Source: a plasmid
Sequence record: NZ_CP096967.1
Reading direction: 5' to 3' (one strand)
Length of the DNA stretch: 39,376 bases
Below the pieces are notes generated by a model. It ran no database searches, was not told where the DNA came from, and saw only the letters and a list, made by a program, of their open reading frames with translations. Positions 12,512 through 35,925 of the stretch are shown one piece after another. Position 1 is the stretch's first letter; every line of letters starts with the position of its first letter. The position numbers and the translations under genes are program-made.

Positions 12512-13241
12512 GGAAAGAAATTGATACCGTACTTTTCGGAGTTCCGGCACTGATGGGCAAACATGGCATGATGAAATGATACCGAATTATCATGCTCGAT
12601 ATATTCTGAAGAACGCCTTTTTGATACCAAATACAAAAAGCTGCCGGAAGCCGGACACAAAAAATTGATACCATAAAACATTAGGGAAAAAGAACAAAGA
12701 GAAAACACTATATATAAATAATATATGAATATATAATATATGAATATATAATATATGAACCTATAAACATATAATATATGATTAATATACTCCACTTCCA
12801 GAAAGAGCAACACGAAGAATCTTCTTTTCCCTAAAGTTCTTTGTGTCGTTTCTCTCTATATCTGAATACAGAAAAACGGCTGCATCATAAAAGAAACGAT
12901 ACCGACACCATTCAGGAACTATCGCCCATCAGCAAAAGGATTGCATCTAATTGATACCTTTTCTGCCTGCACTGGAGAGAAACCGGGAAGGTATTTGATA
13001 CCGTACTTTTCCGGGTTCTGCCCGGCATGGACGATAAGAGAACATTATTATGATACCAAAAACTTTAGGGAAAAATAAAACTTCGGCAGTCTATAAACCT
13101 AAAACTATTTTTAACAAAAATAATTGTCCTATTATTTGCGACATTTATAGAAAACCACTATCTTTGAGTATTGAAAATAAAGAGATAAACAAACCTTTAA
13201 AGCTGGTTTGGCTGCCAGTATAAAGAACAGCAAACAAAATT
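12512..13241 (+). repeat. Composite repeat, full copy A (modules G - TATATA microsatellite - M - P)
   Basis: Near-identical to 35200-35925 (inverted) and 31266-31770 (inverted). Eight TGATACC boxes are present. 14-mer TTTTCCCTAAAGTT at 12818, its reverse complement at 13063. Confidence 0.9.
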
Positions 13242-13511
13242 ATGAATATCTTAAGATTTCTTTTAAGTAGCTTTTTATGGGCTATGGGTGGAATTTTTGT
13301 ATTAGCAATCTATGCGTATAGTGAACTAGTCTATTTGATTTTTATTTGCATTGCAATAGTAGGATTAACCATCTACTACAGAAAATCCATAATAAAAATG
13401 TACGCAGAAATCTTTAATGAGTTAGGAATCAATAAGTATGTTATACAAATTAAAAATCTAAAGAAATACAAAGAACCTATTTACAAACTAATCAATACAA
13501 TAGGTCTATGA
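13242..13511 (+). CDS. Small membrane protein, hypothetical
   Basis: Two hydrophobic helices; sits immediately downstream of the P module. Confidence 0.4.
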   Translation: MNILRFLLSSFLWAMGGIFVLAIYAYSELVYLIFICIAIVGLTIYYRKSIIKMYAEIFNELGINKYVIQIKNLKKYKEPIYKLINTIGL

Positions 13512-13582
13512 TGATTGTTTTTTCTCTATCTTTGCTAAAGACATCAGCAAGATAGCTATATAAAATTAGAAAATAAATAGTT

Positions 13583-14032
13583 ATGGAAACTAATCAAACA
13601 TATCAAAATGAACTTGGTTCAGCTATGCTCCCATTTGTTATGAGAGAATTGGTTGATACAGTCATGAAAAGAAAAACGCTACCTTTAGAAGATGCGTTAT
13701 ACTATATATATTCTTCCAATTTGTACAAGGCATTATTGGACGAGAATACAAAACTATGGTATTCAAGTACATTATCACTTTATGAAGCATTAGAAAAAGA
13801 GAAAACAGAACAGAAGAAAGTACAAAAGGACAATCCAAAGATATTGCTTTTTCAAATGTTTTGTGCTGAAAATTACAGGGAAACTAAAAATATAAGTGCT
13901 AAAGAAACTCTTTTGCTGTTTTCCAATCATGGCGTTTTTGAATTTCTATATGAAAATTTTGAAATGCTGCACACACAAGATACAGAGTATATATTAGATA
14001 CTATAATAACTTATATCAATAAAAAGGCATGA
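13583..14032 (+). CDS. DUF3791-like protein (internal tandem duplication); putative antitoxin or partner of the downstream gene
   Basis: Two similar halves. Its stop overlaps the next start (ATGA). Confidence 0.4.
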   Translation: METNQTYQNELGSAMLPFVMRELVDTVMKRKTLPLEDALYYIYSSNLYKALLDENTKLWYSSTLSLYEALEKEKTEQKKVQKDNPKILLFQMFCAENYRETKNISAKETLLLFSNHGVFEFLYENFEMLHTQDTEYILDTIITYINKKA

Positions 14033-14508
14033 AACTATATCACGGCTCAACAGTTACCGTCAAATCCCCTAATATACAGAAAGGGCGTAAAGCTACTGAC
14101 TTTGGAAAAGGATTCTATACGACAACTAATTTTGAACAGGCTAAGAAGTGGGCAATACTCAAAAGAAATCGGGAACATGGTAAAAAAGCGGTCGTTTCAG
14201 TTTATGAAGTCCCCGATAATATTCTTGATAGAGAGTTTTCAGTCCTTCGATTTGATGGGGCTACAAAAGAGTGGCTGGAGTTTGTAGTTAATAACCGCAG
14301 AGGAAAAGGAAAAAACAGCTATGATTTAATAATGGGACCCGTTGCCAATGACCAGTTATATGCAACAATCCGGCTTTATGAACAAGGTGTTGTTACGGCT
14401 GATGCAGCGATTGAAATGCTAAAGACCCATAAGCTTTTTAACCAACTTTCATTTCATACAGTGAAAGTTATTCCATTATTAAAATTCACAGAATCTATTG
14501 AAGTATAA
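14029..14508 (+). CDS. DUF3990-like protein (MKLYHGS..., possible ART-fold)
   Basis: N-terminal LYHGS motif typical of the family; translationally coupled to the upstream gene. Confidence 0.45.
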   Translation: MKLYHGSTVTVKSPNIQKGRKATDFGKGFYTTTNFEQAKKWAILKRNREHGKKAVVSVYEVPDNILDREFSVLRFDGATKEWLEFVVNNRRGKGKNSYDLIMGPVANDQLYATIRLYEQGVVTADAAIEMLKTHKLFNQLSFHTVKVIPLLKFTESIEV

Positions 14509-14529
14509 ATCATAAAACTATAATGAACC

Positions 14530-14790
14530 ATGAATAAAGAAATGAGCTTGGATGTTGCGCTCGACATTATCGGGACACTCCGCATGATGAAGATAGATGA
14601 AATATCAGAAGAGAAGGATGAAAACAGAAAAAAAATACTGCAAAAAGAACTTTCTGTTCTCAACACAGAAGAAAAAATAGCAAATGGATTGTTGCAGTTT
14701 GAAGTTTCTGAAAATGTGCGCTTATCAGTCATGGATAAGATACAAAACTATTACGCACCTAAATTGAAAGCATATTATGCAACGCTATGA
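14530..14790 (+). CDS. Putative epsilon-like antitoxin
   Basis: 86-aa helical, acidic protein; overlaps the start of the zeta-like gene by 14 nt. Confidence 0.4.
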   Translation: MNKEMSLDVALDIIGTLRMMKIDEISEEKDENRKKILQKELSVLNTEEKIANGLLQFEVSENVRLSVMDKIQNYYAPKLKAYYATL

Positions 14791-34226: not shown

Positions 34227-34544
34227 TCATTTATCCCAATCATAATTATCGTAATCTATTTCCTTTCCTGTAGCATGGCATTCAGCCACATAATCAGCCC
34301 ATTTTTTTCGCTTCGTCACATCAAAAGGCATACGTAGAAACTCATCCTTCCAAGGCTGTATAAAGTAATCAAAATCGTGTTTGTTCGTTACATACTGAAC
34401 AGCATCTCTAATGGCGTTATACTCATATCCTTCTTTCAACAATGGTTCGTCACCCAGTTTAGAGTATATGTTTGCCACTTCCCGAAGCATCTTTGCAAAT
34501 TCTTTGTATGTGGCAAAATTCTTTTCTTTTTTATCCATAATCAT
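34227..34544 (-). CDS. Hypothetical protein
   Basis: ORF in the rep-upstream operon. Confidence 0.3.
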   Translation of the reverse strand: MIMDKKEKNFATYKEFAKMLREVANIYSKLGDEPLLKEGYEYNAIRDAVQYVTNKHDFDYFIQPWKDEFLRMPFDVTKRKKWADYVAECHATGKEIDYDNYDWDK

Positions 34545-34562
34545 TCTTTTTTGTTTTGAGTA

Positions 34563-34781
34563 TTAATTTTTTTCGATGAAAGTATTGGTTGTATTCAACA
34601 CCCCGGCTGAATCTCGACTTTTGCCATCTCTTATGAAGATTCCTTCTTCTTTCAACCGTTCATAATCAAATTCATTCATCATGATAATGACAATATTTTC
34701 ATTTGTATATAGCTTACACTTCATAAATTGAGTACCTTCTATTTTTCCAATTACGTCTATTTGGATTGTTCTTTCATTCAT
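34563..34781 (-). CDS. Hypothetical protein
   Basis: ORF in the rep-upstream operon. Confidence 0.3.
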   Translation of the reverse strand: MNERTIQIDVIGKIEGTQFMKCKLYTNENIVIIMMNEFDYERLKEEGIFIRDGKSRDSAGVLNTTNTFIEKN

Positions 34782-34960
34782 AATTCGTTTATTTATATAC
34801 AGTTATACGTTAATTTCTAATTTACCCCTATATTTGTTAATCCTTTCACATTTCTAATAATTAACTATCAATCTGTAGTTTTCTTCAATGCTTCAAAAGA
34901 AGACAAGTAATCATCAACAGCTTTATTTAACGCTGCATATTTATCTTTCCACGTTCTTAT

Positions 34961-35119
34961 TTACCGTTGTGTTTCAATATACCTATCATTCAAAGTTGCA
35001 TAATTCTGAATAGCAAATCTAATAGCTTTAGCATCTGTTTTTTCACCAGATAATTTTTTTAGATTTTCTAACTCCGCACAGGCTGCATCGTCTAAGCGTA
35101 ATGTAAACTCTTTTTTCAT
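34961..35119 (-). CDS. Ribbon-helix-helix protein (CopG/ParG/antitoxin-like), 52 aa; below the 60-aa ORF-track cutoff
   Basis: MKKEFTLRLDDAACAELENLKKLSGEKTDAKAIRFAIQNY... is a classic RHH N-terminus. First gene downstream of repeat copy E. Confidence 0.5.
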   Translation of the reverse strand: MKKEFTLRLDDAACAELENLKKLSGEKTDAKAIRFAIQNYATLNDRYIETQR

Positions 35120-35199
35120 AAAAAAATGATTAATGAATTAATACTGAAAAATAGCCCTAACAGTTGGCTACGAAATGGATTTAAGAAGCAATGTTTCAT

Positions 35200-35925
35200 G
35201 ATTTTGTTTGCTGTTCTTTATACTGGCAGCCAAACCAGCTTTAAAGGTTTGTTTATCTCTTTATTTTCAATACTCAAAGATAGTGATTTTCTATAAATGT
35301 CGCAAATAATAGGACAATTATTTTTGTTAAAAATAGTTTTAGGCTTATAGAGTGCCGAAGTTTTATTTTTCCCTAAAGTTTTTTGGTATCATAATAATGT
35401 TCTCTTATCGTCCATGCCGGGCAGAACCCGGAAAAGTACGGTATCAAATACCTTCCCGGTTTCTCTCCAGTGCTGATAGAAAAGGTATCAATTAGGTACA
35501 ATCCTTTTGCCGATGGGCGGCAGTTCCTGAATGGTGTCGGTGTCTTTTCTTTTATGATGCAGCCGTTTTCCTGTATTCAGGTATAGAGAGAAACGACACA
35601 AGGAACTTTAGGGAAAAGAAGATTCTTCGTGTTGCTCTTTCTGGAAGTGGAGTATATTAATCACATATTATATATTGTTTATTTATATATTATATATTCA
35701 TATATTATTTATATATATAATATGGTATTCTGTTCCTGTTCTTTTCCCCTAATGTTTTATGGTATCAATTCTTTGCGTCCGGCTTCCGGCAGCTTTTTGT
35801 ATTTGGTATCAAAAGGTTGTTCTGTAGGGTGTGCCAGGAATGATAATTCGGTATCATTTCATCATGCCATGTTTGCCCATCAGTGCCGGAACTCCGAAAA
35901 GTACGGTATCAATTTCTTTCCCTAT
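35200..35925 (-). repeat. Composite repeat, full copy E (P - M - microsatellite - G), inverted relative to copy A
   Basis: Reverse-complement match to copy A at 12512-13241. Confidence 0.9.

Follow-up and report, generated by a model that had tools for sequence, protein, structure and literature searches.

Among described DNA inversion systems, those closest to the element reported here are Hin, Gin and Cin, known from the H segment of Salmonella and the G segment of phage Mu. In these systems, a small serine recombinase with a C-terminal helix-turn-helix (HTH) domain is encoded just inside the invertible segment, beside one of two inverted sites of about 28 bp, each site consists of a pair of A-tract half-sites around a central dinucleotide, and both isomers occur in nature. 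Phase variation by inversion is also common in Bacteroides hosts (PMC7641763, PMC5903667). Here, we report a computational analysis of a plasmid sequence of 39,376 nucleotides (NZ_CP096967.1; this whole stretch is referred to below as the window), with an emphasis on a segment of about 10.8 kb, denoted block Y, that is found in both orientations between two short inverted sites, L and R, and that encodes a small serine recombinase next to site R. In mechanism and in the features tested (a serine recombinase, two inverted sites and the occurrence of both orientations), the element fits the Hin/Gin class. It differs in scale and content, given that block Y amounts to more than a quarter of the replicon and includes its genes for mobilisation, anti-restriction, replication and partition. 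A further difference concerns the expected outcome: Hin, Gin and Cin invert a promoter or alternative tail-fibre exons, whereas the predicted effect here would be to split and rejoin an operon composed of mobilisation (mob) and transfer (tra) genes.

Several other systems share some of these features. The Mpi invertase is, like the recombinase described here, a serine invertase in Bacteroides. The Mpi site consensus, ARACGTWCGT, appears unlike sites L and R. In contrast to the Mpi system, a local pair of sites on a plasmid is involved here, and promoter invertons are about 50 times smaller than block Y; membership of our recombinase in the Mpi family was rejected, the score against NCBIfam NF009949 being 59.7 bits compared to a cut-off of 272. 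The shufflon of R64-type plasmids is similarly a plasmid-borne, recombinase-driven rearrangement tied to conjugation, but it employs many sfx sites and a tyrosine recombinase, Rci, and swaps C-terminal exons of pilV, whereas the present element combines a serine recombinase with two sites and swaps no exons. The yeast 2-micron plasmid with its FLP/FRT system and the beta recombinase of pSM19035 provide precedents for a plasmid-encoded site-specific recombinase that flips a large fraction of a plasmid including the origin, and the zeta toxin of pSM19035 has a counterpart on the plasmid analysed here. Unlike in these two cases, however, the crossover here occurs at 29-bp sites and not within long inverted repeats, although such repeats, of about 730 bp, are present.

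The window is a complete circular conjugative plasmid of the pBF9343 family of Bacteroidales, opened at the ATG of traG. A search of PLSDB with the region around one of the long repeats (copy A, see below) retrieved 30 plasmids from Bacteroides, Phocaeicola and Butyricimonas, including pBF9343 of B. fragilis NCTC 9343. The nearest match, at 100% identity, was NZ_CP081911.1, and the window corresponds to this 35.6-kb type plus two insertions, a group II intron within traG and an element of the IS256 family. Two gene blocks are central to what follows. The tra operon runs on the + strand from 38395 across the circular junction to 12449; its first gene encodes a protein of 113 amino acids (38395-38736, +) and is followed by DUF4134 and DUF4133 genes and then, at window position 1, by traG. 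The opposite-strand block (27599-38249, -) comprises genes for a DUF3408-like protein, ParA, the relaxase and MobC, the oriV iterons, the Rep_3 gene, an operon led by a ribbon-helix-helix (RHH) gene, ardC and the serine recombinase gene.

Site L (27572-27600, +) reads GTTTCAcaaaaCG-AC-CCTTTTTCTGTACT (in full, GTTTCAcaaaaCGACCCTTTTTCTGTACT) and overlaps the DUF3408-like gene at its stop codon. Site R (38350-38378, -) separates the recombinase gene from the first tra gene; its + strand reads A-GTACAGAAAAAGG-GT-CGattaaTGAAAC, that is, the complement of the L reading with a variable stretch of five nucleotides that in R is ttaat. The two sites share a perfect 18-bp core (27583-27600 in L) and the sequence GTTTCA. 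Each site is 28-29 bp long and can be written as 13+2+13 positions around a central GT, with an imperfect dyad. In our reading, the A-tract half-sites recall those of hix and gix. The window has exactly two occurrences of the 18-bp core, in inverted orientation, against an expectation of 0.03, and still no more than two when three mismatches are allowed. Apart from the overlap with the single stop codon, both sites are located outside coding sequences. With fewer than three sites in the window, a recombinase of the serine family and sites outside coding sequence, an R64-type shufflon is ruled out, and with it the likeness to a shufflon proposed in a first-pass annotation of this DNA, since no coding segments are swapped.

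Between the two sites lies block Y (27601-38349), which carries, in this order, the DUF3408-like gene, parA, the relaxase gene, repeat copy D, mobC, repeat copy C, the oriV iterons, rep, the RHH operon, repeat copy E, ardC, repeat copy G and the recombinase gene (the repeat copies are described below). Site R additionally contains a promoter-like element for the recombinase gene on the - strand (TTTC at 38377-38374, a 20-nt spacer and TACTTTTG at 38353-38346), which is preserved in both orientations. The sites are conserved across the pBF9343 family. Two records deviate: in NZ_CP072249.1, a 21-bp deletion in L (~5755-5775) would lock the plasmid in the common orientation, and in CP103278.1, the loss of the outer half-site beside the recombinase gene (~2091-2133) would lock it in the flipped one.

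Both orientations of block Y exist in nature. A synthetic query that joined the 3' end of the DUF3408-like gene to the first tra gene, as expected at the flipped junction, was matched contiguously in 3 of the 30 PLSDB records (NZ_CP072214.1, NZ_CP018939.1 and CP103278.1); the orientation seen in the window is thus the commoner one. NZ_CP018939.1 (73,970 bp) contains about 1.75 laps of a monomer of about 42 kb, and block Y has opposite orientations in the two laps: positions 1-19919 are repeated directly at 42176-62118, and positions 19941-31815 are the reverse complement of 62090-73970. Both reciprocal recombinant junctions are present in this record, and both are clean. Two near-identical plasmids from the same donor series, NZ_CP072214.1 from B. 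xylanisolvens CL11T00C41 and NZ_CP072225.1 from B. thetaiotaomicron CL11T00C24, are collinear but for a 42.9-kb inversion with 6 mismatches.

Metagenomic contigs yield the same picture. A scan for the core identified 107 junctions of the family, 105 of them readable on both sides, of which about 98 were parental and about 7 recombinant. The variable five nucleotides were kept with the outer flank in each of these recombinant junctions, which places the crossover inside the 18-bp core; taking all recombinant junctions together, the breakpoints are inside the core in all but one. A long-read contig (VOFL01000004.1) includes one lap in the parental and one in the flipped orientation, at a distance of 36.5 kb, and its consensus near the junction blends both isomers, as mixed reads would give. 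In another contig (L083), the flipped junction is clean, and an insertion of 1.3 kb lies outside the site.

The alternation of laps bears on the possibility that the inversion serves copy-number amplification in the manner of 2-micron FLP, where a flip that follows replication of one of the sites would convert theta replication to double rolling-circle replication. The origin (oriV, ~31.8-32.2 kb) is indeed inside the block, at distances of some 4.2 kb (L) and 6.2 kb (R) from the sites, and two assemblies consist of multiple laps that alternate in orientation. However, assemblers produce multi-lap contigs from mixed isomers, and the position of the origin between L and R shows no strong asymmetry, so that we consider this explanation hardly probable at all.

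The recombinase (197 amino acids; 37656-38249, -) consists of an N-terminal catalytic domain (Pfam Resolvase, 1.8e-44) and a C-terminal HTH domain (HTH_7). Its best match among solved structures is Gin (4m6f/3uj3; E-value 3e-45, 157 bits), with the gamma-delta, Tn3 and Sin resolvases at about 1e-27 or weaker. Of the 30 PLSDB records, 29 encode this protein with an identity of 99% or more, although the backbones differ by up to about 8% in DNA. In NZ_CP083624.1, a pBF9343-identical plasmid, the recombinase is found, unannotated, in two pieces at ~1335-1819 (80% coverage, 87% identity), through a frameshift or a sequencing error. From the adjacency of gene and site, the protein family and the site architecture, we infer that this recombinase catalyses the flip of block Y.

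Two relatives can be compared in this respect. The plasmid pBACSA01 of Phocaeicola salanitronis encodes a recombinase with 76.7% identity to that in the window and contains an inverted site pair, AAGTAC(A/G)TAAAAACG-GT-CGTTTTATAAAAC, that has diverged jointly with the recombinase. Its sites occupy the same two positions, one directly downstream of the DUF3408-like stop codon and the other 21 nt upstream of the first tra gene, and their dyad is clearer, AAAACG-GT-CGTTTT. In pBFY46 (NC_006297.1), no core-like site was found, and no homologue of the recombinase is annotated. Together, the two comparisons would indirectly support a dependence of the inversion on the adjacent recombinase.

These comparisons have to be weighed against a role of the recombinase in multimer resolution at site R, in which case L would be a fortuitous or hitch-hiking site and the inversion a neutral by-product without regulatory function. 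A small serine recombinase beside its own site is the usual plasmid resolution module, the gene is located within the maintenance block, both orientations seem viable with one predominating, and variants with one site destroyed do occur (NZ_CP072249.1 and CP103278.1). Yet the resemblance of the protein to the invertase Gin clearly exceeds that to resolvases, and the homology between L and R spans 29 bp, the size of one crossover site and not of a three-subsite res of about 120 bp, with accessory subsites possible at R alone. Moreover, the two-site arrangement is retained at the same positions, with joint divergence of sites and protein, in pBACSA01, and L sits exactly where pBFY46 has a 15-nt operon junction. 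On this evidence, multimer resolution appears to be an unlikely account of the module, and inversion at L and R by the Gin-like recombinase is the reading that we pursue.

What the inversion might accomplish is suggested by the genes on either side of the two sites. The DUF3408-like protein (146 amino acids; 27599-28039, -) is the product of the final gene of the relaxase-parA operon. Searches of Pfam and NCBIfam gave no direct match for it, and the label derives solely from a homologue in pBFY46 with 42% identity that is annotated as DUF3408. Upstream of it in the operon are the genes for the ParA-family ATPase (28092-28715, -) and a MOBP relaxase (28731-30350, -). In pBFY46, which is wholly co-directional, the genes for the relaxase, ParA and DUF3408 are followed, after a gap of 15 nt, by the tra genes. 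The flipped isomer has the same layout, in that the DUF3408-like stop codon, the inversion site and the ATG of tra all fit into 43 nt. At this junction in NZ_CP072214.1, no terminator was flagged between the DUF3408-like gene and tra under criteria that need GC-rich stems. In the window orientation, by contrast with the flipped one, the tra operon abuts the upstream region of the recombinase gene, and no TAnnTTTG consensus promoter was found within 150 nt upstream of tra. Scans for sigma-70 promoters at site L and at the flipped junction were uninformative, this promoter type being the wrong one for Bacteroides.

In the flipped state, every operon would be co-directional, the relaxase-parA-DUF3408 genes would run into tra, and the mob promoter would transcribe the tra genes. 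In the common state, tra would be cut off from the mob promoter. The inversion could then act as an on/off or high/low switch of the transfer apparatus. The most likely role of the flip, judging from gene order and promoter predictions, would be to couple and uncouple the tra operon and the mob promoter. That this amounts to a phase-variable conjugation switch, in which the flipped plasmid, with tra fused to relaxase-parA-DUF3408 in the ancestral layout, would be on and the common one, with a promoterless tra operon, would be off, is a tentative proposal that we would put forward as possible but somewhat improbable.

The long repeats invite a different explanation, and it is the one from which the analysis started. 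The first-pass annotation held that two near-identical composite repeats of about 730 bp, copies A and E, in inverted orientation, bracket a segment of about 22 kb that would flip by recombination between them, thereby changing the operons behind a promoter-like module, P, at the end of each copy and re-orienting rep and mob relative to tra. Alignment of all copies resolves the repeats into four modules: M1 and M3, which are phased arrays of the heptamer TGATACC, M2, an AT-rich spacer, and P, a promoter. Modules are found at seven places in the window, A to G, so that the four copies originally recognized (A, C, D and E) are real, C and D lying where they had been placed, but the partial copies B, F and G had been missed.

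Copy A (12512-13246, +) is a full composite that starts just after the putative terminator of the tra operon. It consists of M1 (12512-12713, with four TGATACC), M2 (12718-12948), M3 (12949-13062, with three TGATACC) and P (13063-13241), the latter with a promoter at 13135-13166 (+) and then a 5' untranslated region up to the ATG of the open reading frame (ORF) at 13242. The other full composite, copy E (35195-35925, -), is located upstream of the RHH-to-rep operon and includes P (35201-35379), M3 (35380-35493), M2 and M1 (35720-35921). Copy C (31261-31770, -; M3 at 31267-31380, M2 at 31381-31611 and M1 with three TGATACC at 31608-31747) precedes mobC, and copy D (30417-30723, -; M3 at 30430-30543 and a partial M2 at 30544-30670) precedes the relaxase gene. 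Of the smaller copies, B (24572-24686, +) is an M3 only, with three TGATACC and 99.1% identity to the M3 of A, upstream of an operon consisting of a small ORF and the gene for the type IV coupling protein (T4CP); F (27359-27539, +) is an M1 only, with four TGATACC, after the putative T4CP-HTH terminator and just outside site L; and G (37233-37372, -) is a P only that ends at the ardC ATG. An Rfam search of the whole window assigned no RNA family to the repeats, the group II intron being the only match.

Copies A and E are indeed inverted, but they are less alike than had been assumed: global identity is 678/741 (91.5%), with 89% in M1, 91% in M2, 97% in M3 and 98% in P. The A/E relationship is a mosaic, A being closer to C (98-100% over M2-M3) than to E. 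The resemblance of copies varies from plasmid to plasmid, the M2 modules of A and C being 98% identical in the window and 87% in pBF9343, which indicates that sequence is exchanged between copies. The repeats are not assembly duplications, as all 30 family records, among them pBF9343, which was sequenced by the Sanger method, contain their modules, at 5-11 occurrences each. The M2 of each full copy holds an inverted version of the box GA(T/C)AC(C/A)AA(A/G)AACTTTAGGGAAAA that ends M3, so that this pair (12826-12850 and 13056-13080 in the window) forms an inverted repeat about 200 bp apart inside the control region.

Homologous, RecA-type recombination between A and E, or between A and C or A and D, as a programmed switch or shufflon flipping 18-22 kb therefore has substrates, namely A/E with 91.5% identity over about 735 bp and A/C with 99% over 345 bp, both inverted, and the exchange of sequence between copies is in its favour. 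The products of such a flip, nevertheless, are missing from the plasmids compared. When a synthetic A/E-flip junction, with the OmpA end joined to the RHH operon, was searched against all PLSDB plasmids, each half was matched in 30 of 30 family records and both together in none, so that no alternative A/E orientation is found in any of the 30 assemblies. The parental A junction, including both flanks, was fully covered in 25 of the 30; A adjoins tra and the 13242 operon in all 15 records fetched; and eight unique segments kept their order and relative orientation throughout the first eight plasmids fetched.

The position of P likewise disagrees with the original scheme. P is promoter-like, with a Bacteroides consensus, at the end of each full copy as proposed, and P of A reads into ORF 13242 and onward and P of E into the RHH operon from 35119 downward. 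Both of these targets are inside the bracketed 22 kb, however, so that P points inward and not outward. Since each P sits at the inner edge beside its own operon, a crossover anywhere in the repeats would leave it with that operon, and the operons behind P would not be re-assigned.

Two short metagenome contigs, L056 and L129, contain the tra-operon end (OmpA), M1, the outer flank of L, the site and the recombinase gene, in that order, which could represent an assembler mis-join inside M1 or, in a flipped plasmid, the loss of the DNA between the M1 modules of A and F, which are in direct orientation. As a possible A-F deletion, they count in favour of recombination between long repeats, but isomers do arise at the much shorter 29-bp sites. 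Inverted repeats of 345-735 bp without isomers, alongside 29-bp sites with isomers, point to site-specific and not homology-driven exchange, and we regard a programmed flip between the long repeats as very unlikely. The proposal of a large inversion that re-orients rep and mob relative to tra has thus held up in general terms, with the difference that the segment extends from about 27.6 to 38.4 kb, and not from 12.5 to 35.9 kb, and is bounded by the 29-bp sites. The inverted arrangement of A and E results from the location of E, along with C, D and G, on the 10.8-kb block that itself inverts, and the flip turns all control modules from inverted into direct repeats. That the 730-bp composites are modular control regions and not crossover sites, and that the separate 10.8-kb block is inverted at the 29-bp sites by the Gin-like recombinase, is in our judgement the probable explanation.

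The distribution of the modules is consistent with a regulatory role. All 14 plasmid records mapped for modules share this architecture; in them, all copies except F point along the downstream operon, and extra accessory cassettes come with a copy of their own. In the window orientation, what copy F faces is a convergent gene, at its 3' end, whereas the flipped isomer has F upstream of the recombinase gene. The heptamer TGATACC occurs 35 times in the window, compared to 3.4 expected, and 31 of these occurrences belong to nine arrays with spacings of 55, 45 or 44 bp, near multiples of 11. The direction of the array is that of the downstream genes in eight of the nine cases, and in the ninth, copy F, only in the flipped isomer. 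The arrays are placed between terminator-like hairpins and the next promoter. One hairpin with a T-run (~12473-12506), at the end of the tra operon, directly precedes copy A, and another (27315-27346) follows the T4CP-HTH operon, before copy F; we read both as terminators, although neither satisfied the GC-rich criteria of the terminator scan. The arrays are not iterons of the replication initiator, which are a separate and unrelated array of 4.1 units of 22 bp, AGGGACAAAAACCCAACTTCTT, at 32072-32160, adjoining the Rep_3 gene (32189-33346, -).

Module P contains TTTG-N20-TATCTTTG, the Bacteroides -33/-7 consensus, at 13135-13166 (+), 35306-35275 (-) and 37338-37307 (-). These are three of the five full consensus matches in the window, the others being one before mobC (31235-31204) and one inside a gene. 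P ends exactly at the start codon in A (ORF 13242) and in G (ardC; 36222-37232, -).

The arrays are conserved beyond the family. pBFY46 contains 29 TGATACC against 3 expected, in arrays with spacings of 55/44/44 bp before its operons (230-379, 17213-17630, 25791-25895, 28364-28781 and 30163-30257), all on one strand; its repeat copies are merely 65-75% alike, yet the arrays and their spacing are kept. A scan of GTDB with TGATACC-N(37-48)-TGATACC-N(37-48)-TGATACC proved too unspecific, with at least 116 chance matches in unrelated phyla. We read the composites as a putative shared upstream control region that combines motif arrays for a DNA-binding protein with a common promoter. Most likely, the TGATACC arrays would be binding sites of a plasmid-encoded protein that co-regulates or pairs the heads of operons, and the conserved, phased arrays would define a putative plasmid-wide regulon. 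Candidates for the binding protein are the Xre-type HTH protein (26922-27308, +), the DUF3408-like protein, the RHH protein (34961-35119, -), encoded by the first gene of the operon driven by E, and the HU-like protein (23576-23854). According to the annotation of relatives, the RHH gene belongs to a longer frame (34868-35119, -) for a DNA-binding protein of 83 amino acids; the N-terminus of this protein looks RHH-like, and a premature stop (CAA to TAA) shortens it here to 52 amino acids. The closest parallels are the KorB OB sites of IncP plasmids and the omega heptad arrays of inc18 plasmids, where a short motif likewise precedes many operons of one plasmid and is conserved across deep divergence. 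Unlike those arrays, the TGATACC motifs are 44-55 bp apart and not contiguous, and lie inside modules of 115-200 bp that are near-identical within a plasmid.

Several observations weigh against the interpretation developed here. The recombinase is a probable catalyst of the flip, judged by adjacency, family and site architecture, and the transcriptional consequence is a prediction from the sequence. A lone -7-like box at 38159 (+), inside the recombinase gene and 236 nt upstream of tra, could drive the tra operon in the window orientation, and promoters of Bacteroides can deviate from the consensus. Within the family, per-column conservation does not single out the motif, the spacers being nearly as conserved as the heptamers, which are told apart only by comparison with the distant pBFY46. 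Among the records with recombinant junctions, the long-read contigs with both isomers have a partly blended consensus, and L056 and L129 may be mis-joined inside M1. NZ_CP072214.1 is not a clean product of conservative recombination: the variable five nucleotides accompany the inner flank, and an inverted duplicate, 175-193 bp long, of the start of the first tra gene (5754-5946 and 48651-48843) remains at the far junction, joined via CTTTT microhomology.

The remaining gene content of the plasmid can be summarized briefly. Downstream of copy A is an accessory and DNA-processing block (13242-24571, +), followed by the T4CP and Xre-type HTH block (24974-27308, +), the first part of which is the operon consisting of the small ORF and the T4CP gene (24974-26929, +). 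The mobC gene (30728-31084, -), which encodes a NikA-like relaxosome protein, has the consensus promoter mentioned above to itself. Insertions have altered some members of the family. A group II intron (2218-4616; Rfam matches at 2288-2438 and 4540-4616) splits traG, which encodes a VirB4-like ATPase; the intron-encoded protein corresponds to the ORF at 2848-4494 (RVT_1 and GIIM domains), and related plasmids are devoid of the insertion. An IS256/Mutator-family element (15622-17012; transposase ORF at 15727-16941, -) has entered the zeta-toxin gene at its 3' end, and the toxin ORF encodes 284 amino acids here and 288 in relatives; the nearest plasmids do not have this element. In CP103278.1, a mobilisable element with cfxA (14700-31300) is inserted in the first tra gene, and a portion of the tra operon (25245-31007) runs opposite to its remainder, a second and unrelated rearrangement.

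Inversion of block Y is apparently undescribed so far: no description of an inversion in pBF9343-type plasmids, or of 'FinB', was found in the searchable literature, a prior mention being possible in the 2005 genome paper on NCTC 9343. Plasmids of the pBF9343 family are widespread in Bacteroidales of the human gut, and among gut species of Bacteroides, Phocaeicola and Butyricimonas they spread the antibiotic-resistance genes tetX, ermF, OXA-347 and cfxA as well as toxin genes (MACPF). The inversion accounts for assemblies of these plasmids that are oddly of double length or labelled 'dimer', and plasmid typing and synteny comparisons will meet two isomers of one and the same plasmid. More generally, conspicuous long inverted repeats can be the passive outcome of inversion at inconspicuous 29-bp sites. 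If the invertase sets the expression of the tra genes, the spread of these plasmids would be a bet-hedging trait, exercised by a subpopulation of the cells that carry them.

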